Assembly: GCA_018712865.1 (NCBI GenBank)
Contig: DVGH01000034.1
Coordinates: forward strand, 48,941-112,940
From: Candidatus Scatovicinus merdipullorum
Lineage (GTDB): Bacteria; Bacillota; Clostridia; Oscillospirales; Acutalibacteraceae
Direction of reading: 5' to 3'
Length of the DNA stretch: 64,000 nt
Below the pieces are notes generated by a model. That model saw only the letters and a list, made by a program, of their open reading frames with translations. It made no database searches and was not told the DNA's origin. Positions 9,878 to 49,976 of the stretch are shown one piece after another (the first letter of the stretch is position 1; each line of letters opens with the position of its first letter). The position numbers and the translations under genes are program-made.

Positions 9878-11338
9878 TCAGGCATATACCCCATCATCAT
9901 ACCCGTCTGTCCCGTCGGCATAACCATCGTAATAGTAGCCGTCGTCATAATAATAACCATCGTCAGCATAGCTGTCGTCAGAATAACCGTCATCGTAATA
10001 GCTTTCGTCAGTATAGCCGTCGGTATATCCATCGCCGCTGTCCTGCCAGGTATAATCTGTCACAGGCTCGGTGGCGGCGGTTGTGGGCTCGGTAGAAGGC
10101 TCGGTGGCATACAGCGTATTGTCCGGGTTGTAATATGATGCCTTTTTGCTGCCATTGCAGGCCGAAACATCTAAAACGCCCATATCGGTCTGGGCAAGCT
10201 TCTGGTCAATAATCGTCTGCGCCGTGCGGATTTTATAATCAATATCCTCTGGCATTCCCAGAACAATCTGGATCCTGTCTGCATAATTTAACTTAATATT
10301 GGCCGTGTTCGAAACATCAATTTCCCGTATGCCGTTAAATTCATTTTTTTGTAAGGCCTTGGTGATCTCGTTTAAGATCGGCATAATATTCTTATTCTTC
10401 ACCTGGGCCGTGTTTCCCACCTCGGCCTTCTCCAGCGTACAGCCTTCGATCACCGGCGCGTCATATGTATTTTTACTGATTCGCTCCAGCACTCTCCCCT
10501 CAGAGGAAATCACCACAAATTCTTCCCCTTCCGCAATCACATACGCCGGTTGCGCCTCTGTAATATGTATGACCATCGTATCGGGGATTCGTATGTCAAT
10601 TTTCGCCTCTTCCACATACGGGAGCGTCTGCTTGATCTTCTCTTCCCCTGCTTTTTTATCACTTAAAAACAGATTTTCCCCCAGCGTCAGACCGCTTGCA
10701 TCAATAATCTCCTGGTTGCTGTAATGCGCAGATCCTTCCACCTCAAACTGTTCTGATTTAAAAAATACCGTCAGTGAAAGCACAACGCCTACGATCAGGA
10801 TCACCAGCAGGATCGCGCCGCAAACGGCAAAGTTAATCACCTTTCTGGTTTTTCTGGAAAATGGCTCTCTGCTGAGCTCCTCCTGGATCCTTGCCTCTTC
10901 CTCGGCCTGCATGGCGGCATTTTGCTTCATAGCGACTTCATCTGTGTAAAAGCCGTCGCCGTAATCGTCCCGCCGGACAATCGGCTCCTCTGTATACGTC
11001 TTTCTTGCAGGGCCGCTCTTGGCTCTTCTTGCCGCGTCACCTACCTTCTTACCGCCGCGTTGGGGCATACGCGTTGATTTTGCCTCGGCCTTTTGCACCG
11101 TTTTTATAGCGGGGCTGCGCTTTGTCTGTTGTCTTTTTTGTTTTTCCTCAGAAAAGGGCCGCCCTGCACTTTTTTCCGGGGCAGTCCGCTTATTGCCCGG
11201 GGCTGCGGCAGGCCTTCTTCCGCCTGTCGGCCTTTTTGCATTGCGCATCTTCTGGCTGCCATTTTGCATGCCCGGCCTTTGTTCAGACATCCGCTTGTTT
11301 TGCTGATTTTGATTGCTGCCTTTGTTCTTGTTTTCCAT
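9878..11338 (-). CDS. ftsQ: FtsQ/DivIB-type cell division protein with long basic N-terminal tail and Asp/Tyr-rich C-terminal tail
   Basis: Single TM segment (INFAVCGAILLVILIVGVVLSLTVFF), then a POTRA-like FEVEGSAHYSNQEIIDASGL... and an FtsQ-like beta domain. It sits between murA and ftsZ in the dcw cluster. Confidence 0.7.
   Translation of the reverse strand: MENKNKGSNQNQQNKRMSEQRPGMQNGSQKMRNAKRPTGGRRPAAAPGNKRTAPEKSAGRPFSEEKQKRQQTKRSPAIKTVQKAEAKSTRMPQRGGKKVGDAARRAKSGPARKTYTEEPIVRRDDYGDGFYTDEVAMKQNAAMQAEEEARIQEELSREPFSRKTRKVINFAVCGAILLVILIVGVVLSLTVFFKSEQFEVEGSAHYSNQEIIDASGLTLGENLFLSDKKAGEEKIKQTLPYVEEAKIDIRIPDTMVIHITEAQPAYVIAEGEEFVVISSEGRVLERISKNTYDAPVIEGCTLEKAEVGNTAQVKNKNIMPILNEITKALQKNEFNGIREIDVSNTANIKLNYADRIQIVLGMPEDIDYKIRTAQTIIDQKLAQTDMGVLDVSACNGSKKASYYNPDNTLYATEPSTEPTTAATEPVTDYTWQDSGDGYTDGYTDESYYDDGYSDDSYADDGYYYDDGYYYDGYADGTDGYDDGVYA
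9881..10060 (-). repeat. Low-complexity coding repeat (D/Y/G-rich C-terminal tail of FtsQ-like protein)
   Basis: The last 60 aa (TDYTWQDSGDGYTDGYTDESYYDDGYSDDSYADDGYYYDDGYYYDGYADGTDGYDDGVYA) contain 18 D, 16 Y and 10 G by my count. Confidence 0.9.
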
Positions 11339-40552: not shown

Positions 40553-40894
40553 ATGAATGTACAGCTTAGCTGTTCCAAAGGCGAGCTTACCGCCCTATTG
40601 CGCGGCGAAATTGACCATCATACAGCGCGCGAAATTCGAAAAGCGATCGACAGCGACATAGAACGCCTGCATCCATCCCTTTTAAAACTGGATTTTTCAA
40701 ATGTCCAGTTTATGGACAGCTCGGCCATTGGCTTAATCATGGGGCGCTTCCGTCTGATGCAGCTGACCGGAGGCTACGTAAAGGTCATTAACGTCCCACC
40801 GCATTTAAAACGCCTGATCGAGCTTTCCGGCGTGGGTGCTCTGGGCGTTTTGGAGTATAAGGGAAAAACAAAAGGAAAGGAAGTGCAAAAATGA
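40553..40894 (+). CDS. spoIIAA: Anti-sigma F factor antagonist (STAS domain)
   Basis: 113 aa. Phosphorylatable-Ser context FMDSSAIGLIMG. First gene of the spoIIA operon. Confidence 0.92.
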   Translation: MNVQLSCSKGELTALLRGEIDHHTAREIRKAIDSDIERLHPSLLKLDFSNVQFMDSSAIGLIMGRFRLMQLTGGYVKVINVPPHLKRLIELSGVGALGVLEYKGKTKGKEVQK

Positions 40895-41334
40895 AGCCGA
40901 TCAATGAAATGAAGCTGAGCTTCTTAAGCCGCAGTGCAAACGAAAGCTTTGCAAGAGCAGCAGTTTCCGCATTCATTTTACAGCTGGACCCCACAATTGG
41001 GGAAATGGCAGATATCAAAACTGCCGTATCAGAAGCTGTCACAAATTGCATTGTCCATGCATATGCCGGTACGTCAGGGATTATATACATAACGGCGCAA
41101 ATTTTTGAAAAAGGCAAGGTCGTTATTCGGGTGCGTGATAAAGGCTGCGGCATTGCGGACATCGAACAGGCGATGAAGCCGCTTTTCACAACCGGCGGCG
41201 ATGAACGGGCAGGGCTTGGGTTTGCAGTCATGACAAGCTTTACGGACAAGTTAAAGGTTACCTCCGCCCCACAAAAGGGCACAACCGTAACCATGACAAA
41301 ATTTCTGTCGCAGGATGTACAGCAAAATGCCTGA
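40891..41334 (+). CDS. spoIIAB: Anti-sigma F factor (serine kinase)
   Basis: GHKL motifs EAVTNCIVHAY, DKGCGI and GLGFAVM. 4-nt overlap with spoIIAA. Confidence 0.93.
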   Translation: MKPINEMKLSFLSRSANESFARAAVSAFILQLDPTIGEMADIKTAVSEAVTNCIVHAYAGTSGIIYITAQIFEKGKVVIRVRDKGCGIADIEQAMKPLFTTGGDERAGLGFAVMTSFTDKLKVTSAPQKGTTVTMTKFLSQDVQQNA

Positions 41335-41992
41335 AACTGTTGAAAAATCCTGTATCATACAGGAAAACCTTGGGCTGGTTCACGCCTGCGCAAAACGCTT
41401 CAAAGGCAGAGGCATAGAATACGACGACCTGTACAGCGCCGGGTGCCTGGGGCTTGTAAAAGCAGCCGGCCATTTCGACAGTACGCGTGGGTTCCAGTTT
41501 TCAACCTATGCCGTCCCCGTCATTTTAGGGGAGATCCGGCGCCTGTTTCGCGACGGCGGAACGGTCAAGGTCAGTCGCAGCTTAAAAGAGCTTTCGTTAA
41601 AGGCAAGCCGGGCTTGTACGGCTTTTATTGCAGAACACGGCAGGGAGCCCACCATCAACGAATTGGCCTCTCTTTTAAACATTGAACCACAGCAGGCGGC
41701 AGAAGCCCTAAACGCCGCTGCCAGGCCTGTTTCCCTTTCTGCCGATGAGGAAAACGGCGGTGGACAGCTGGACATCCCCACAGACGCGCCGGAAGAACGC
41801 CTGACAGAGCTGCTCTCTTTAAAGCAGGTTCTCCATGAGCTAAATGAACAGGACCGCATGCTGATTACCCTGCGTTTTTTTAAAAACCAAACACAAACGC
41901 AAACCGCACAGGCACTTTCCATGACACAGGTACAGGTTTCCCGCAGGGAAAAGAAAATCCTCCTGCTTCTGCGGGAAAAGCTTGCCGTTTAA
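41315..41992 (+). CDS. sigF: Sporulation sigma factor SigF
   Basis: Region 2 DDLYSAGCLGLVKAAGHFD...FSTYAVPVILGEIRR, region 3, and the region 4 HTH TQTAQALSMTQVQVSRREKK. The alternative start ATG 41327 cannot be excluded. Confidence 0.9.
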   Translation: MYSKMPETVEKSCIIQENLGLVHACAKRFKGRGIEYDDLYSAGCLGLVKAAGHFDSTRGFQFSTYAVPVILGEIRRLFRDGGTVKVSRSLKELSLKASRACTAFIAEHGREPTINELASLLNIEPQQAAEALNAAARPVSLSADEENGGGQLDIPTDAPEERLTELLSLKQVLHELNEQDRMLITLRFFKNQTQTQTAQALSMTQVQVSRREKKILLLLREKLAV

Positions 41993-44484: not shown

Positions 44485-44528
44485 CTGCCCTTTCGTTGTA
44501 CGTCGGTTTAAAACGCCGCAATATTTGT

Positions 44529-44557
44529 ATTATATCGGATTTCCCGTTCTTTTTCAA
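44529..44557 (-). promoter_or_regulatory. Sigma-A-type promoter of proS
   Basis: Minus strand TTGAAA-17 bp-TATAAT, about 45 nt upstream of the ATG. There is no room for a T-box leader. Confidence 0.65.
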
Positions 44558-44936
44558 TATATAAATCCAACCTTCCCTTGCTTTCCTATACTTATCAAAC
44601 CTATTTTTATCTAATGTGTTTTTATAAATTCAATTTTTCCATATTTTTCTTGCAGTTATTATTTTATACATTTTTTATATGTCAAAATTCACTATATATT
44701 TTTTACTCATTTTACTATGTATAAGACAAAAAATAACAAAAAAATGCACAAAATTTGCATATCAATATCGTTTACATTATGTACAATGAACATATAGGCT
44801 ACATTTTTCTGGTTGCCTATACAAAAATACGCATATATTTCATAGTCAAAAACTGATTTTTGCTGGCCTTAGATCACAATGGAATATAGAAAGCGTATAA
44901 AAACAAATTTTTTGGGGATGAAAAGAGGTTGTAAGG

Positions 44937-47900
44937 ATGAAAACATGGAAAAGGGTGGTATCGTCACTTCTGACATTTCTGATCGTGCTAAGCATGTTCA
45001 CGATCTGTACATTGGCGGCAGCAGCACAAACACCTGGACTCAACATCGGGAAACTGTATTTTAACAATACAGAAAATTGGGAACAGGTTTTAGCGTGTTT
45101 GCTGATGTCCGATGGAGAAACCTCCGTACAAGCCACACAAGCGCAAAGCAATGAATCCGTATTTTACGTAGAAATTGCTGAAAGTGTGGACGGTGTGTAT
45201 TTTTATGATGGCAACACGCAACGTACACAAACCATCACCGATTTTACTGACGGCCAAATCTTTATACCAGACGGTGGTACTCAGCAAGAAAACGGAAATA
45301 TATTCTTTAGCGGCACACTGGAACAATACGCTGTAAAAAACGTCATATTTATGATTGGCGACGGTATGGGGTCAGAACAAATCAAGGCAGGTAGCATCTA
45401 TAAAGGTGAAACGTTGCACATGCAACAAATGCCATACAGCACTATGGTCACCACTTATTCCAACAGCGGCATCACAGACAGCGCTGCCGCGGCTACAGCT
45501 CTTGCCACCGGTTATAAAACAGCTAATAACATGGTCGGCATGCTCGAAGATGGTACGAAAGTTGAAAATCTTGTAGAATTTTCAAAAGCCAGAGGCCTTA
45601 AAACCGGCGTAATTGCAACCCAGGTAACGCCGCATGCAACACCCGCAGGTTTTACCGCACACGTTTCAGCCAGATATTCTTATAATTCGATTGCGGCGCA
45701 GCAACTTACACAACAGCTGGATCTTCTGTTCGGCGGCGGTTCCTCTTACTTTGATACAAGGACGGAAGCCATTGAGGCCAACAATTATATATGGATCAAG
45801 GATCTCAGCGAGATCGCGTCTGTTCCAGCTGATAAAAACGTTCTGGGGACATTTTCCACGTCCTATATTACAGCGGACGATGAACCTCATCTGAAAGATA
45901 TGACCGCCGCGGGGTTGGAGCGTTTATCAAATGAAAATGGCTTTTTTACCATGATTGAGGGTTCCGACATAGATTCTTATGCGCACAAAAACGATATGGA
46001 TAAAATGCTTAAGGAGTTAATCGTCTTCGACGACGCAGTTGAAGTTGCACAGAAATATGTAGAAGATCATCCCGACACGCTGTTAATCGTAACAGCAGAC
46101 CATGAAACGGGCGGATTAAAAATTCCTGACAACGCAACGACAGAAGACCTGACTGACAATCTGTTCACAACCGGAAATCATACAGGCGCCGACGTCCCGG
46201 TATTTGCAAGCGGCGCAAGGGCATGGGAACTTTGCAGCGAACCTATCATAGATAACACGGAAATTCATGATTTTATTGCGGATGCCATAGAGGAAAGCTA
46301 TGGCTATGCACCACCCAAGGATTTTACAAATTACGACGCAAGGAAGATCTTTTTAGAATTGCCTGAAAGCTGGGAAGCTCCATTTGCTTATACCGAGGGT
46401 GCTATTTCTTTAGGAGAATTTCCCGGAGTAGAAATGACACATGAGGAAGACAATATTTATTCTATTTTGCTGCGGGATTACGACGGAAATACGGCCCCAG
46501 AAGATCTGTATATTCCGGGTGATGTAAACGGCAATGGAACAGTCACCATACAAGATGTATTAGATATACAAAAATATTTATCACGTTTAATAACATTTAA
46601 CGATGACGCACAGCTTGCTGCAGATATAAATTGCGACGGTAGCATCACCATCGAGGACGTACTGGAGATACAAGAATACCTTGCAAAAGAAGAAAACATA
46701 TATAACATTGGTACACAGGTATTAAAGCCTGGCGTTGCCGGTCTGTCTATCATATTTAGCAGCCAAAACGGATATCAAACAGAAAAAATTCCGTTTGCAG
46801 GTTTTTATAAAAAATATACCATTACGAACAATGAACAGACACAGACTGCCACAGGCGTATGGGAGGACTACACCCCTACATTTGGATCTGTCTATTTTGA
46901 AAAACCAGAATCCTGGGAAAACGCTTACTTCTATACATGGGGCGATGCATATTTTGGCGTATGGCCTGGTACAAAGATGCAGCAGGTAGAAGATAATATT
47001 TATTCCATTACTATTTCGGCAGATGATGTTTTGGAAACCACCTTAGAATTCAGTCTGGTCTTTAGCGATGGAAATACATACCAAACAATAGATATAGATT
47101 TTGCTGGACTCAATAAAATTTATAAGATTTTTGGCGGCGAAAATTCTAAAAAAGCGTACGGAAGTTGGTTTGATTACGATAGCAACAGCGGTGACGATCC
47201 AGATCCTGGAAACCCAATGACCATTTATCTGAAAGATGAAACCTCCTGGGATATTACAACAGATGACGCAATTATATCCGTTCAATGCGACAACGGGGAT
47301 ATGATCCCAATGACCTATCTTGGCTCTAAAATATGGTCTGCAACTGTCACAGATAATTATAAGGGTATTGTGTTTACAAGAAGCAATCCCAAGGACGGCG
47401 TTGTTTGGAATGCATTTTGTCCTGCCACAGCACGGGAAGAAAACGATATGTATTGTGTTACAGGCAGTACAACTGGCTATTGGGACAAATTTGACGGCAT
47501 AGTGGAACCTACCGATCCCACCGATCCGACAGACCCCACAGAACCATTCGATCCAAATCAAGACGACTCTAAAGAATTTGAAGATGTACCCAAAAAAGAA
47601 ATTTACCTTAAAGATGAAACCAGCTGGGGTATCCATTCTGACGATCCCGTTATTTTTGCACAGTGCGGCAGCAAAAAAATTATAGCCACCCCAAACGAAG
47701 ACAACACCGTTTGGACAGCAAGCGTACCGCAGGATTGGGATCTGGTTATTTTCAACAGAGTTGATCGCGATTCCGGCAGAGTGTGGAACAGCTTTCCAAA
47801 AACACCTGTAAGCATGGGCGAGAATAATATGTATGTTGCCACCTCCAGCTCTGAGGGTGCTTGGACAAAATACGAGCCTGCTCCTCCTGGAGAGGAAAGA

Positions 47901-48386
47901 GAAATTACTGTTTACTTTAAAAATATGCGTGGCACAGAATACTATATACCTCAGGTAATGATCAACGCGGAAGTATTTGACATGAAACTTTTGGATAATA
48001 ACACCGACTTAGGCACACTTGAAGCATCCGCCGATCAAACAGGGGGCTGGTATGCTTACACCTTTACCACCACACAGGAAACAGTAAATGTAACTTTTTC
48101 TAACTCATCCAATAAATACAATATGACCGCAGAGATAAGCACAGACGCATGGTTTTCAAACAAACGTTACGATTATACAAAAGACGAAAATCTCGTAGAC
48201 TATACTGCACTACACCATGCGATCGTACAGGCGCAAAAAGAAGTTTCTCCCACAGACACTCTGCTAGACGCATTAAGCGAAGCTCTTACGGTCTACAATT
48301 CCACATCTTATTCTGACAAAGTAACCGTCGACCAAGACGCAGTAAACACTGCCGAACAAACGCTTACTGCTATACTAAACAATTAA
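44937..48386 (+). CDS. Secreted multidomain alkaline phosphatase (PhoA family) with type I dockerin and multiple carbohydrate-binding-like modules
   Basis: Signal peptide MKTWKRVVSSLLTFLIVLSMFTICTLAAAAQ. PhoA motifs GDGMG, TDSAAAATA (nucleophile Ser), EGSDIDSYAH, TADHETGG and HTGADVPVFASG. Dockerin at aa 528-584. Six modules opening with a YF/YL-x5-W signature. RBS AAGAGG. Confidence 0.85.
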   Translation: MKTWKRVVSSLLTFLIVLSMFTICTLAAAAQTPGLNIGKLYFNNTENWEQVLACLLMSDGETSVQATQAQSNESVFYVEIAESVDGVYFYDGNTQRTQTITDFTDGQIFIPDGGTQQENGNIFFSGTLEQYAVKNVIFMIGDGMGSEQIKAGSIYKGETLHMQQMPYSTMVTTYSNSGITDSAAAATALATGYKTANNMVGMLEDGTKVENLVEFSKARGLKTGVIATQVTPHATPAGFTAHVSARYSYNSIAAQQLTQQLDLLFGGGSSYFDTRTEAIEANNYIWIKDLSEIASVPADKNVLGTFSTSYITADDEPHLKDMTAAGLERLSNENGFFTMIEGSDIDSYAHKNDMDKMLKELIVFDDAVEVAQKYVEDHPDTLLIVTADHETGGLKIPDNATTEDLTDNLFTTGNHTGADVPVFASGARAWELCSEPIIDNTEIHDFIADAIEESYGYAPPKDFTNYDARKIFLELPESWEAPFAYTEGAISLGEFPGVEMTHEEDNIYSILLRDYDGNTAPEDLYIPGDVNGNGTVTIQDVLDIQKYLSRLITFNDDAQLAADINCDGSITIEDVLEIQEYLAKEENIYNIGTQVLKPGVAGLSIIFSSQNGYQTEKIPFAGFYKKYTITNNEQTQTATGVWEDYTPTFGSVYFEKPESWENAYFYTWGDAYFGVWPGTKMQQVEDNIYSITISADDVLETTLEFSLVFSDGNTYQTIDIDFAGLNKIYKIFGGENSKKAYGSWFDYDSNSGDDPDPGNPMTIYLKDETSWDITTDDAIISVQCDNGDMIPMTYLGSKIWSATVTDNYKGIVFTRSNPKDGVVWNAFCPATAREENDMYCVTGSTTGYWDKFDGIVEPTDPTDPTDPTEPFDPNQDDSKEFEDVPKKEIYLKDETSWGIHSDDPVIFAQCGSKKIIATPNEDNTVWTASVPQDWDLVIFNRVDRDSGRVWNSFPKTPVSMGENNMYVATSSSEGAWTKYEPAPPGEEREITVYFKNMRGTEYYIPQVMINAEVFDMKLLDNNTDLGTLEASADQTGGWYAYTFTTTQETVNVTFSNSSNKYNMTAEISTDAWFSNKRYDYTKDENLVDYTALHHAIVQAQKEVSPTDTLLDALSEALTVYNSTSYSDKVTVDQDAVNTAEQTLTAILNN
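46518..46688 (+). other. Type I dockerin module (duplicated Ca-binding F-hand)
   Basis: GDVNGNGTVTIQDVLDIQKYLSRL...ADINCDGSITIEDVLEIQEYLAK. Two DxNxDGxxxxxD-type loops, each followed by a helix. Confidence 0.85.
47217..47876 (+). repeat. Diverged tandem duplication of a module of about 95 aa inside the phosphatase gene, separated by a PTDPTDPTDPTEP linker
   Basis: Copy 1 is aa 761-853 and copy 2 is aa 887-980. Both begin IYLKDETSW and share the ...QC...W.A.V......F.R....G.VWN.F.......N.MY... register. The linker is 47508..47546. Confidence 0.8.
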
Positions 48387-48456
48387 TGTGCAAATCTAAA
48401 CCATAACCACCCCCCTAAGAGGAGGGGGGAACTGATAAGCCGTTTATAAGGCCACG

Positions 48457-48492
48457 ACAAGAGCCAGTGCCTTTTGGGGCACTGGCTCTTGT
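48457..48492 (+). terminator. Strong hairpin downstream of the phosphatase gene (terminator-like, no clear U-tract)
   Basis: ACAAGAGCCAGTGCC-ttttgg-GGCACTGGCTCTTGT, a 15-bp perfect stem. It is preceded by a second hairpin CCCCCCT-aagagg-AGGGGGG at 48410..48429. Confidence 0.5.
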
Positions 48493-48640
48493 GCTAAACC
48501 AGCAACAAAAGAACAAAGCGTGTGATATCCTTAACGAAAAAATCAAAGCAAACCAAATAGATATAAAATCAGAAACTCTGAATAAAATTTCTGTTTTTAT
48601 TTTTCAAAACAAGGTATACTACGAATAGCGGGGGGATCGT

Positions 48641-49482
48641 GTGAAATATTTCTATGAAGTTGTAAAATATGAAAAAAATTGTCCCGGAAAGATTTTGATG
48701 CAAGATAAAGCAGGCTCGCGTTGCAATACAACGTTACATTGGCATAAGGAACTGGAATTTGTATATATAATCAAAGGCACGCTTAATGTAAATATTAGCG
48801 GGAAAAGTCTCCAAATTAAAGACGGGGATTTCTATTTTGCAAACAGCGAAGAAATCCATATCACCTCCGCTATAGACGATGATTCTATTAATAAATACAT
48901 TGTTATCTTGCTTTCCCATGATTTTATGCGGAATTACTGCAAAAAATTGGACAGCGTCATGTTTGATGTAAACGGCAGACAATCTGTAAAAGAACCACTC
49001 AAACAATGCTTTATTAAGCTTATAGATCTTAAGGAAAACGATAAAGACGACCCATATGCAGGCTTAAAAATCAACGCGCAAATCATGAATATTTACTACA
49101 TCCTTTTAAGCCAATGCATCGTTTACAAAAAAAGCCTTACAATGCGTATGTACCAGATTCCTTCACTTACGCAAAGAAGGTAATTGAATACGTAGGCCTA
49201 AATTATAAAAATGAAATTACGCTTAACGATATGGCTGCTCTTGTTGGCTTAACACCCGCATATTTTTCTAAATATTTTAAAAGAATAACAGAAAGCAATT
49301 TTACGCAATATTTGAATAATGTGCGCCTGGAGCATGCTTTACAGGACATGATATACGATAACCTATCGGTCACCGACGCAGCTTTAGAAAATGGTTTTGC
49401 AAACGTAAAATCCTTCATAACCTTCTGTAAAAAGGTATACGGCTGTACGCCTATGCATTATAAAAAACAATTTTCTATATAA
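48641..49482 (+). pseudogene. AraC/XylS-family transcriptional regulator interrupted by a frameshift in an A7 run
   Basis: ORF 48641..49183 encodes the cupin-type sensor domain (HWHKELEFVYIIKGTL...). ORF 49114..49482 encodes the double-HTH AraC domain (ITLNDMAALVGLTPAYFSKYFKR...GFANVKSFITFCKKVYGCTP). The frames join at AAAAAAA 49127..49133, and an eighth A would restore one 280-aa ORF. Confidence 0.8.
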
Positions 49483-49505
49483 TAGCAATATATTGGCCAT
49501 ACAAA

Positions 49506-49976
49506 TCAATATGGAATATTTACAACGTTTGTCACAATCCCTGCGTCTGTTATATCTACAATACCAAACGAAGCATACAGGCCATGCAGGCTTCCGGGAT
49601 TCATCACATACAACCCGTCCTCATAATCGGTCATAGCGGTATGGGTATGCCCAAACAGCAAAACATCGGCTTTTTCCTCCCGCGCGGCACAGTAAATATT
49701 GTAATATCCCATTTTGACTTGATACAGATGTCCATGTGTTGCAAAAATCTTCTTTCCCGCAACCGTCAGCACCTGCTTGGAAGGGAGCGACGACCCCCAA
49801 TCGCAATTTCCCCGTATGCGTACAATCATTTTTTCGGGAAAATCTGTAACCAACTGCGCAGACTGCTCCTCCCCATCGCCTAAATGAATCACGACCTCCG
49901 CCTTTGGCTGGGCGGTTACCACCCTGCGCAGCGTATCATAATCGCCATGCGTATCGGAAACGACCAATATCCTCAT
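49506..49976 (-). CDS. YfcE/MJ0936-family metallophosphoesterase
   Basis: MRILVVSDTHGD, HLGDG, GNCD, THGH and GHTH motifs. 156 aa. Confidence 0.88.
   Translation of the reverse strand: MRILVVSDTHGDYDTLRRVVTAQPKAEVVIHLGDGEEQSAQLVTDFPEKMIVRIRGNCDWGSSLPSKQVLTVAGKKIFATHGHLYQVKMGYYNIYCAAREEKADVLLFGHTHTAMTDYEDGLYVMNPGSLHGLYASFGIVDITDAGIVTNVVNIPY

Follow-up and report, generated by a model that had tools for sequence, protein, structure and literature searches.

Judged from its sequence, the 1149-amino-acid protein encoded by an open reading frame at 44937..48386 (+ strand, ATG start) of the 64-kb window, the whole stretch of DNA analysed here, joins an alkaline phosphatase (AP) core to a type I dockerin and to starch-binding modules of family CBM26, and we interpret it, with a probability of roughly 0.45, as a secreted PhoA-family phosphomonoesterase built for alpha-glucan work. 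The host, Candidatus Scatovicinus merdipullorum, inhabits the chicken gut and is related to Ruminococcus bromii, a specialist on starch, with which it shares the family Acutalibacteraceae. GenBank labels the protein only 'alkaline phosphatase' (HIR03346.1). The open reading frame was as the first-pass annotation had described it, every motif which that annotation quoted was found in place, and the signal peptide that it proposed is readily seen in the translation. Pfam profiles placed Alk_phosphatase, Dockerin_1 and CBM26 all far beyond chance, so that the architecture given above holds. The features of the gene and its surroundings are as follows.

44726..44810 (+), block upstream of the gene, kept in an alignment with L003 and L009 and carrying a TACAAT/TATAAT that resembles a -10 element
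44937..45026 (+), Sec-type signal peptide, aa 1-30 (MKTWKR, hydrophobic core and AAAAQ, read directly from the translation)
45045..45272 (+), M1, degenerate CBM26-like module, aa 37-112 (hhalign to the CBM26 profile)
45330..46301 (+), PhoA-family AP catalytic domain, aa 132-455 (Pfam PF00245, alignments to 3A52 and 2IUC)
46344..46508 (+), M2-N, N-terminal half of a CBM26, aa 470-524 (M3 as query, hhalign)
46509..46694 (+), type I dockerin, aa 525-586 (Pfam Dockerin_1, PDB matches, hhalign)
46695..46856 (+), M2-C, C-terminal half of the same CBM26, aa 587-640 (M3 as query, hhalign)
46884..47135 (+), M3, canonical CBM26, aa 650-733 (Pfam PF16738, Amy16 alignment)
47217..47495 (+), M4, unclassified beta-sandwich, aa 761-853 (AF2 model, Foldseek)
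47496..47597 (+), Pro/Thr/Asp-rich linker, aa 854-887 (read from the sequence)
47598..47876 (+), M5, second M4-type copy, aa 888-980 (phmmer, M4 against M5, E 8e-19)
47901..48170 (+), M6, beta-sandwich, aa 989-1078 (AF2, Foldseek)
48183..48383 (+), C-terminal three-helix bundle, FIVAR-like, aa 1083-1149 (AF2)
48641..49483 (+), AraC-family regulator with cupin sensor and HTH_18 (gene calls, Pfam)

The PhoA-family catalytic core, which the first-pass annotation had called complete, was confirmed by the Pfam scan (PF00245, 192.5 bits against a cut-off of 24.4, E 1.6e-56) and by matches to the cold-active APs of Shewanella (PDB 3A52, E 3e-48) and Antarctic TAB5 (PDB 2IUC, E 1e-41). Its motifs are GDGMG (aa 141-145), TDSAAAATA (180-188), EGSDIDSYAH (341-350), TADHETGG (386-393) and HTGADVPVFASG (415-426). 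Alignment to 3A52 and 2IUC identified S182, in a D-S-A motif, as the putative nucleophile, R246 as the putative phosphate-binding residue, and D142, T235, E341, D346, H350, D388, H389 and H415 as putative Zn/Mg ligands, while H233 and S347 fall at E. coli positions 153 and 328. We take D142, S182, T235, R246 and E341 to be the equivalents of E. coli D51, S102, T155, R166 and E322, and D346, H350, D388, H389 and H415 to correspond to D327, H331, D369, H370 and H412. All E. coli PhoA catalytic positions are kept; the two-Zn/one-Mg active site is complete in the alignment, and the domain is predicted to be a competent phosphomonoesterase. The cold-active enzymes, to which the likeness is closer than to E. 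coli PhoA, have the same nucleophile, metal ligands and arginine, as well as the histidine at E. coli position 153; at position 328, however, they carry tryptophan and E. coli PhoA carries lysine, whereas the present protein has serine. They are also single-domain proteins, periplasmic or secreted, without CBMs or a dockerin, whereas the 1149-aa protein has both. Membership in the SEX4/LSF2/laforin family was rejected, as Pfam and NCBIfam scans of the catalytic region list only Alk_phosphatase and Metalloenzyme and no dual-specificity phosphatase family, leaving only a 'works like' analogy.

Starch-binding-type modules are indeed present, although the resemblance to CBM25/CBM26 that had been suggested for them was upheld for CBM26 (M3, M2 and, by profile, M1) and not for CBM25. 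Pfam CBM26 covers three stretches of the protein (72 bits, E 5.4e-20). M3 scores 51.9 bits against a gathering score of 28.1 (E 9e-14), and can be aligned with each of the two CBM26 modules in Amy16 of R. bromii (PDB 9QF9). In RbCBM26 the ligand platform consists of the aromatic residues Y53, Y55 and W63, arranged as Y-x-Y...W (Sas6 paper, doi 10.1101/2022.11.20.514607); compared with these residues, the platform is intact in M3 (Y664, Y666, W676), partial in M2 (F483, Y485, F495) and absent from M1, so that M3 is alone among the three CBM26-type modules in having it in full. M1 appears to relate to CBM26 at the profile level only (hhalign probability 93.7%, E 1.9e-7; Pfam E 0.75).

The predicted canonical, duplicated F-hand type I dockerin was likewise borne out. 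Dockerin_1 (PF00404) matches aa 527-582 with 40-44 bits against a cut-off of 22.9 (E 3.4e-10), and the two F-hand Ca2+ loops (D529-x-N-x-N-G...D540 and D563-x-N-x-D-G...D574) are each followed by DVL(D/E)IQ(K/E)YL. In the PDB search the best solved match was the dockerin of R. bromii Amy16 (E 1e-11), and the dockerin of C. thermocellum Xyn10B matched as well. By sequence alignment, this dockerin interrupts a loop of the M2 CBM26 rather than lying between modules. Positions 3-48 of an M3 query match aa 471-516 and positions 36-82 match aa 585-629, and M2 with the dockerin removed spans columns 3-89 of the 89-column CBM26 profile in hhalign (99.2%, E 1e-19), the dockerin being one single insertion; in Pfam, M2 scores 24.6 bits, under the CBM26 gathering score of 28.1. 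The orthologous CBM26 is uninterrupted in the homologues P0007, P0008, P0012 and P0013. Amy16 (GH13-CBM26-dockerin-CBM26, PDB 9QF9; the Ruminococcoides intestinale orthologue is L001) is also the best solved match for M3, and in both proteins CBM26 sequence flanks the dockerin. However, the dockerin of Amy16 lies between two complete CBM26 modules and that of the AP protein inside one, and the catalytic domain of Amy16 is a GH13 amylase whereas ours is a phosphatase.

About six beta-type modules of one shared signature had been proposed in the first-pass annotation; the count stood but the single family did not, with M1-M3 being CBM26-type, M4 and M5 belonging to another family and M6 standing apart. 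M4 has no Pfam or PDB sequence match, and hhalign found no relation of M4/M5 to CBM26. The M4 model (AF2, pLDDT 94) has as its top Foldseek match the CBM41 of TmPulA (TM 0.63-0.65), followed by CBM20, CBM48 and CBM26, none of these matches reaching E<=1e-3, and its structural neighbours also include CBMs from laforin (4RKK) and SEX4 (3NME); on these models the nearest folds to the M4/M5 family would be alpha-glucan-binding CBMs. The M4-type family comprises 209 clusters. Its modules are carried mainly by enzyme-less surface proteins, and co-occur most often with CBM26 (12/70) and X25 (6/70) and also with CBM48 and GH13. The linker between M4 and M5 varies between strains by a 6-aa (PTD)2 insertion or deletion. 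M6 gives weak Pfam matches to CBM26 and DUF7448 and 1.8% against CBM26 in hhalign; its AF2 model (pLDDT 73, 7 strands) has mixed Foldseek matches to Ig-like, CBM41 and CBM25 folds. As for the tail, described earlier as FIVAR-like and helical, the AF2 model has helices at construct positions 105-115, 122-136 and 148-163, a predicted three-helix bundle that would be compatible with FIVAR without being specific to it, whereas the FIVAR profile itself (PF07554, E 0.11, 13.6 bits against a cut-off of 29.2) stayed below threshold.

Comparison with homologues indicates that the AP protein is in a distinct clade that almost always bears CBM26. About 30 similar AP + CBM26 proteins occur in gut Clostridia: CBM26 modules, from one to eight of them, are found on 30 of the 33 closest AP homologues and on none of the remaining, more distant 87. 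A characteristic small residue at the position of E. coli K328 marks the clade, the residue there being S, T, A, L or Y, as against mostly H, W or M in other APs. The catalytic machinery is fully kept across the clade at an overall identity of 40-65%, which argues for selection on catalysis, and no other region of the protein is as well conserved as the AP domain. Members are anchored in three differing ways, by a dockerin, by SLH or by an N-terminal membrane helix, suggesting that the CBM26 modules are additional to cell retention.

The scaffold that such a dockerin would engage was sought in the 64-kb window and in about 100 kb of host-species contigs, where no cohesin was found. In other assemblies a cohesin-like scaffoldin gene adjoins a 40%-identical member of the AP family (Pfam Cohesin E 1.5e-4, below threshold). 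An amylosome setting is supported indirectly, by the family shared with R. bromii, by the Amy16 dockerin match and by the closest metagenomic dockerins, which sit on GH13-CBM26 amylases in 5 of the 10 non-AP proteins scanned, although their source genomes may differ. The same dockerin type also occurs on LRR (LRR_5), RicinB, CHAP, CotH, Peptidase_C1 and CN_hydrolase (nitrilase-type) proteins; the scaffold therefore looks like a general display system, and the dockerin alone says little about the substrate. Many non-CAZyme dockerin proteins are similarly present in R. bromii amylosomes (PMC12663171). No paper that ties alkaline phosphatase to dockerins or to amylosomes came up in the literature search, so that the earlier description of this combination as not characterised appears right, except that the AP part had already been annotated in GenBank.

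Upstream of the gene, the block at 44726..44810 is kept amid AT-rich DNA that is otherwise divergent between the window, L003 and L009, and probably serves the AP gene as promoter or as binding site for a regulator; the consensus promoter scan returned no + strand site within it. An AraC-type regulator adjoins the AP gene in five independent loci, and lies downstream of the AP homologues in L027-L029; NCBIfam gives it generic AraC-family matches only. No pst, phoU or phoR gene is adjacent to the AP gene in any locus examined, and no GH13 or maltodextrin gene adjoins it in eight distinct locus types. A secreted nuclease adjoins the homologue P0019 and a purple-acid-phosphatase-like gene lies near P0025, both being putative further P-scavenging enzymes.

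In the mechanism that we propose, the Ca2+-dependent dockerin of the exported enzyme would engage a cohesin, carried by a scaffold at the cell surface or of the amylosome type, and the CBMs would keep the enzyme bound to starch granules or to alpha-glucan chains that have been solubilised. The AP domain would then cleave phosphomonoesters at the glucan via a phospho-Ser182 intermediate, yielding unblocked chains and inorganic phosphate. The likeliest substrates would be phosphate esters at C6/C3 in amylopectin and in phospho-maltodextrins, which would obstruct amylases, and the adjacent ligand-sensing AraC-type regulator probably controls AP expression in the clade. Functionally, such an activity would be convergent with that of SEX4/LSF2 in plants and laforin in animals, whose catalytic fold is unrelated. 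SEX4 (DSP+CBM48), LSF2 and laforin (CBM20+DSP) follow the same design of a phosphatase with starch- or glycogen-binding modules, and amylases need glucan phosphatases for access to glucan (PMC5779698). In contrast to the AP protein, which has a Ser/Zn/Mg site and is predicted to be secreted, they are Cys-based dual-specificity phosphatases that are intracellular or plastidial.

We regard a glucan phosphatase role as plausible, on the basis of the 30/33 CBM26 clade, the M3 platform, the Amy16-like dockerin and an AraC-type rather than a Pho neighbour. PhoA-type enzymes are notoriously promiscuous, which counts against this role. Phosphate acquisition is, moreover, their canonical function, which favours a broad-specificity AP that takes Pi from soluble phosphomonoesters (nucleotides, sugar phosphates, inositol-phosphate breakdown products), with the glucan as a perch and not a substrate and with the dockerin and CBMs preventing wash-off from the cell surface or starch particle. 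The cereal starch of poultry feed holds very little esterified phosphate; the proposed substrate may therefore be scarce in the host habitat, and this poverty in phosphate esters likewise speaks for general scavenging. Starch-anchored scavenging is a serious contender, falling only a little short of even odds, and is nearly as likely as glucan phosphatase action. It also draws on the absence of starch-utilisation genes near the AP gene in all lineages examined, on the nuclease and purple-acid-phosphatase-like neighbours, and on the many non-starch proteins that carry the same dockerin type, with a parallel in the non-CAZyme dockerin proteins of R. bromii amylosomes (PMC12663171). Scavenging fits less well with loci that lack adjacent pst, phoU and phoR and conserve an AraC-type sensor instead, with the confinement of CBM26 to a single AP clade marked by a distinct active-site signature, or with proteins that are already anchored and still bear up to eight CBM26 modules, a number hard to justify for retention alone.

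Several observations run against the alpha-glucan reading itself. The AraC-family regulator is frameshifted in the window, at an A7/A8 tract near 49127, and the M4/M5 fold matches are weaker than E 1e-3. The loci examined are without adjacent starch genes, no cohesin was seen in the window or in the host-species contigs covered, a single CBM26-type platform of three is intact, and the dockerin is of a general kind. The non-catalytic binding modules make up about 60% of the protein, which together with the enzyme-less surroundings of most M4-type modules could suggest that it is mainly a Sas-like starch adhesin with a minor AP role, or that it acts on non-glucan phospho-compounds of the granule, such as granule-surface phosphoproteins or phospholipid-derived monoesters left by other enzymes. 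Sas6 and Sas20 of R. bromii are a precedent for adherence proteins of this kind, combining CBM26/CBM74 or CBM26-like modules with a dockerin, as in the AP protein, and having the aromatic Y/Y/W platform in common with it. The Sas proteins, however, have no catalytic domain, and in the AP clade the catalytic machinery is perfectly conserved at 40-65% overall identity and the AP domain is the best-conserved part; we consider this explanation improbable.

Extending the alpha-glucan reading to the family as a whole, we suggest tentatively, and with the odds rather against it, that the CBM26-AP clade may comprise the first bacterial extracellular alpha-glucan phosphatases, recruited by CBM26, and in some lineages by dockerins, to the surface apparatus with which gut Clostridia degrade starch, where they would strip the C6/C3 phosphates that block amylases. 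If this is true, these enzymes would be a secreted, convergent counterpart of SEX4/LSF2 and laforin, and would supply a missing step in how microbes break down phosphorylated and resistant starches. The combination of AP, CBM26 and dockerin suggests that phosphate is removed or harvested on starch in a step that is so far unstudied.

The open reading frame at 44937-48386 on the forward strand, which the first-pass annotation had read as a PhoA-type alkaline phosphatase (AP) with a dockerin and starch-binding-like modules, proved to be a genuine gene of 1149 aa, with an ATG start behind an AAGAGG-type ribosome-binding site and, at the N-terminus, an apparent Sec signal peptide (MKTWKR followed by a hydrophobic core and AAAAQ). 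All of the motifs quoted in that annotation were located in the translation at the residues it gave, and a Pfam scan returned Alk_phosphatase (192 bits, E 1.6e-56), CBM26 (72 bits over three stretches) and Dockerin_1 (40 bits), all far over the curated cut-offs. The original observation was thus confirmed, but the account of the non-catalytic modules needed correction, for which we divided the protein into segments and tested each module separately. The six beta modules are called M1 to M6 from the N- to the C-terminus:

44937-48386 (+), AP gene, 1149 aa
45045-45272 (aa 37-112), M1, related to CBM26
aa 470-524 and 587-640, M2, the two halves of a CBM26
aa 525-586, dockerin
aa 650-733, M3, CBM26
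47217-47495 (aa 761-853), M4
47505-47522 (aa 857-862), (PTD)2 in the Pro/Thr/Asp linker after M4
47598-47876 (aa 888-980), M5

The nearest solved structures to aa 132-455 were the compact cold-active APs of Shewanella (3A52, E 3e-48) and TAB5 (2IUC, E 1e-41), and in alignments with both the catalytic positions were all kept (D142, S182, T235, R246, E341, D346, H350, D388, H389 and H415, which we take to be equivalent to D51, S102, T155, R166, E322, D327, H331, D369, H370 and H412 of E. coli PhoA). The Arg166 equivalent, a hallmark of monoesterases, is among them. In E. coli numbering, position 153 is His, as in most relatives, and at position 328 the protein has Ser (Ser347) instead of the Lys of E. 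coli or the Trp of the cold-active enzymes. From these residues we infer that the protein is an active phosphomonoesterase working through a phospho-serine intermediate. GenBank names it 'alkaline phosphatase' (HIR03346.1), and its component domains are all of known kinds. As predicted from its sequence, the protein was shown to be a secreted PhoA-type enzyme in which no catalytic residue is missing; it carries a genuine dockerin, at least one fully canonical CBM26 and other modules of the starch type.

The canonical CBM26 is M3 (52 bits), which aligned to each of the two CBM26 modules of Amy16, the Ruminococcus bromii amylosome amylase (PDB 9QF9). M3 retains, as Y664, Y666 and W676, the aromatic ligand-contacting platform of RbCBM26 (Y53, Y55 and W63; doi 10.1101/2022.11.20.514607). 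M2 is a CBM26 cut into two by the dockerin: with M3 as query, its positions 3-48 matched aa 471-516 and its positions 36-82 matched aa 585-629, and when the dockerin was removed in silico M2 aligned end to end with the family CBM26 profile (hhalign 99.2%, E 1e-19), an alignment that was the same, with one large insertion, when the dockerin was retained. Its platform is partly retained (F483, Y485, F495). M1 is related to CBM26 at the profile level only (93.7%, E 2e-7) and has lost the aromatic residues. M1 also opens with YFNNTENW, as does the C-terminal CBM26 of an Amy16-type amylase of Ruminococcoides intestinale (locus L001, about 10600-10850), which may be left over from an exchange of modules with amylases.

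The dockerin contains a pair of canonical F-hand loops, D529...D540 and D563...D574, and a near-identical helix, DVL(D/E)IQ(K/E)YL, comes after each; its best match among solved dockerins was that of Amy16 (E 1e-11), followed by those of C. thermocellum Xyn10B. Its placement differs among members of the AP family. Homologues P0002-P0005, the clade of the query, have it nested within that same loop of the CBM26; in P0006 and P0015 the loop accommodates a linker and one whole additional CBM26 as well as the dockerin; P0010 and P0011 carry the dockerin in a loop further along the module; and in P0007-P0009, P0012-P0014 and P0016-P0017 it is C-terminal and M2 is contiguous. This distribution suggests repeated insertion or relocation of the dockerin during the history of the family. 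We know of no described case of a dockerin nested in a CBM, and our literature searches were not aimed at excluding one. A dockerin inside a CBM26 loop is an unusual domain insertion that is relevant to cellulosome and amylosome engineering.

M4 and M5 are paralogues from a family distinct from CBM26. Pfam and PDB sequence searches gave no match for either, and membership of M4 in CBM26 by sequence was dropped after a profile comparison found no detectable relation (hhalign 0.6%). M4 was modelled with confidence from 20 sequences of its family (pLDDT 94, nine strands), and the Foldseek neighbours of the model were mainly alpha-glucan-binding modules, none of which reached E 1e-3: the best were CBM41 of T. 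maritima PulA (TM 0.63-0.65), followed by CBM20 of STBD1 and laforin and CBM48 of AMPK-beta and SEX4, with CBM26 of E. rectale Amy13K and the N-domains of pullulanases and isoamylases among the others. An exhaustive HMM search found M4-type modules (consensus YLxP..W...ARFAAY...W..M....G.Y...P....VIF.RMNP....N.W.N.WNQT.DL...N.Y....W.) in another 209 protein clusters, where a single protein may have as many as 8 copies. Among 70 of these clusters the partners most often identified were CBM26 (12), pullulanase X25 (6), CBM48 and AMPK-CBM (2 each) and GH13. A GH13 pullulanase that also carries X25, PUD and SLH modules is a further member, and most members are enzyme-less surface proteins, frequently with CBM26 or X25 (P0242-P0388). 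M4 and M5 thus probably belong to an unclassified starch-associated family, a candidate new starch-binding CBM family, and would themselves bind starch. The M6 and tail model was of moderate confidence (pLDDT 73). M6 was modelled as a seven-stranded sandwich with mixed Ig-like and CBM41/CBM25 fold neighbours; its hhalign comparison with CBM26 gave 1.8%, and from this model and these mixed matches no family could be assigned. The tail, previously described as FIVAR-like, was modelled as a three-helix bundle compatible with FIVAR, but its Pfam FIVAR match was below threshold (E 0.11).

The comparison across the AP family was the most informative result. CBM26 modules of the M3 type (1-8 copies) were present in 30 of the 120 best AP homologues, all 30 of them within the top 33, and were absent from the other 90 (3 of the top 33 and all 87 of the more distant homologues). 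Members of this clade were also found in human-gut assemblies (loci L027-L029 and L033-L036). The CBM26-bearing enzymes use three different anchors, namely dockerins, SLH repeats (P0018) and an N-terminal membrane helix (P0019-P0023, P0028-P0033), so the starch modules are additional to cell retention. The clade also differs at the K328-equivalent, which was S, T, A, L or Y in all 30 CBM26-bearing APs and mostly H (28), W (20) or M (11) in the others. Judged from these comparisons, AP and CBM26 showed themselves almost inseparable within the clade, and this AP subtype and alpha-glucan binding have long been joined in a clade-specific manner.

In order to place the dockerin among its relatives, we scanned metagenomes with a profile of the AP-family dockerins and examined the ORFs with the most similar dockerins. 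GH13 alpha-amylases with CBM26 made up 5 of the first 10 non-AP proteins; the rest of the 20 scanned dockerin proteins carried LRR_5, RicinB, Cthe_2159, NlpC/P60, CHAP, CotH, Peptidase_C1 or CN_hydrolase domains, or were small proteins without another confident domain (three). No Pfam cohesin was found among the 20. These partner domains indicate a dockerin type common to amylosome-type amylases and a scaffold that displays many kinds of protein, with which R. bromii proteomics agrees (PMC12663171). A protein-database search with a dockerin profile returned only fragments of at most 126 aa, uninformative on partner domains, and a scan of the genome collection with the full AP protein returned only the Ruminococcoides intestinale Amy16-type amylase, through its dockerin and CBM26. 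That scan found no AP orthologue in the species representatives, probably because exact peptide patterns reach close relatives only.

A candidate scaffold component lies directly downstream of the P0016-type AP (8 CBM26 and a C-terminal dockerin) in three loci:

L036, 5151-7004, complete gene
L035, 5577-6674, cut by the contig end
L033, 5569-6624, cut by the contig end

This gene encodes a signal peptide, an N-terminal dockerin and PT linkers, with three repeats of about 148 aa in the complete L036 copy. Cohesin was the top Pfam match of the repeats (E 1.5e-4 and 2.8e-3; 22 and 18 bits), spanning nearly the whole profile below its gathering score of 24; the repeats had no PDB sequence match, and Cohesin was absent from the whole-protein scan. 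The L036-type gene may encode a divergent scaffoldin, which we treat as a lead only, and no copy was found in the window or the other fetched loci. Cohesins of ruminococci are known to be divergent (PMC13463774). Loci of this type occur in assemblies OIYD01 and OJQY01, prefixes that may each cover more than one organism, alongside GH13-CBM26-dockerin amylases and the query-type AP next to its AraC gene; GC content is similar across all of them.

Exact-sequence look-ups of ten housekeeping proteins from the window found nine in the collection, with named copies in MAGs called Candidatus Scatovicinus merdipullorum or Acutalibacteraceae bacterium. NCBI places the genus Scatovicinus under Oscillospiraceae; placement of R. 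bromii in Acutalibacteraceae follows GTDB usage. The species name points to chicken faeces. Around the AP gene the window is otherwise housekeeping (dcw cluster, MutS2, PhoH/YbeY group, SpoIIAA/AB/SigF, ProAB), and an Rfam scan gave no match. Its features near the AP gene are:

About 40554-41992 (+), SpoIIAA (STAS), SpoIIAB (anti-sigma kinase) and SigF-like operon just upstream of HTS and ProRS
44485-49483, interval of the GC comparison
48641-49483, AraC-family regulator, frameshifted at an A7 tract at about 49127
49506-49976 (-), YfcE-family metallophosphoesterase

The SpoIIAA, SpoIIAB and SigF-like operon indicates a spore-forming host, as reported for R. bromii. The AP gene lay between ProRS and the AraC-family regulator in 8 of 8 further contigs of the species, which ruled out the AP-AraC pair as a strain-variable island, and the AP protein was 99.6-100% identical among strains except for the 6-aa (PTD)2 insertion or deletion that gives 1149-aa and 1155-aa forms. 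GC was 42.8% in the AP gene, 34.4% in the AraC gene and 27.7% in the upstream spacer, against 48-49% in the flanks and 49-52% for the AP gene in homologous loci; the low GC may mean that the pair was acquired long ago from a donor of lower GC. The YfcE-family gene (NCBIfam TIGR00040, 88 bits) directly follows the AraC gene in all strains, and the homologous loci of P0002 and P0005 lack it.

In the window species, P0002, P0005 and L027-L029 the AP gene is followed by the AraC-family regulator (cupin and HTH_18), which is absent beside the AP in the P0007/P0011, P0019, P0025 and P0028 lineages; no characterised relative of the regulator was specific enough to suggest its ligand. In the window the frameshift leaves a 180-aa cupin ORF and a separate 122-aa HTH ORF. 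In other contigs of the species the tract was A7 in 3/9 and A8, with an intact 280-aa gene, in 6/9, and the 180-aa form was present on at least 65 contigs in the protein collection; phase variation at the homopolymer, or else an assembly error that recurs, may explain this. Upstream of the AP gene a conserved block includes a -10-like element; a consensus promoter scan of the forward strand gave nothing convincing there. AT-rich TAACA-like repeats are also located there; we do not read them as a Pho box, as such matches are expected by chance at 28% GC.

We infer that the AP protein is tethered to a cohesin scaffold and binds starch, and we favour the reading that it acts on glucan-bound phosphate, at a probability of roughly 0.45. 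This reading is favoured because the usual role of CBMs on a catalytic domain is to direct it to its substrate, because the CBM modules persist in APs that already have a cell anchor, and because the CBM26-AP clade has its own active-site signature. The main rival, which we rate as only slightly less likely, is that the enzyme scavenges phosphate in general and has starch and the scaffold only as a perch; this reading draws on the promiscuity of PhoA enzymes, the generic nature of dockerin display, the missing linkage to starch genes and the low phosphate content of cereal starch. In the contexts inspected (nine contigs of the window species and homologues P0002, P0005, P0007, P0011, P0019, P0025 and P0028), no starch-utilisation or pst/phoU/phoR neighbours of the AP gene were present in any lineage, and the 64-kb window held no cohesin, GH13 or other dockerin gene. 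A context without starch-utilisation or Pho-regulon genes does not discriminate between these hypotheses.

Amylases are blocked by the phosphate esters of starch, which is why plants and animals depend on dedicated glucan phosphatases; we know of no microbial extracellular glucan phosphatase, and no such equivalent was described in the literature searched. Amylolysis is known to be hindered by glucan phosphate, whose removal in eukaryotes requires SEX4, LSF2 or laforin (PMC5779698). The AP protein has no DSP domain, unlike the SEX4/laforin family, and is not a member of it. Any likeness is one of functional convergence. The searched literature did not link alkaline phosphatases with dockerins, amylosomes or CBM26. 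New are the recognition of an AP clade associated with CBM26, the finding of a dockerin nested in a CBM26, and the M4 family, which is unclassified.

An AP clade that almost always carries starch-binding modules provides a concrete, clonable glucan-phosphatase candidate. If glucan phosphate is the substrate, this would bear on the use of potato-type and chemically phosphorylated (RS4) starches by gut bacteria, on the role of many 'unknown' amylosome dockerin proteins and on possible feed or food enzyme additives. If these enzymes are instead scavengers on starch, amylosome-type scaffolds and CBM26 would position non-glycosidase enzymes. The clade offers a concrete and cheaply testable hypothesis in resistant-starch biology.
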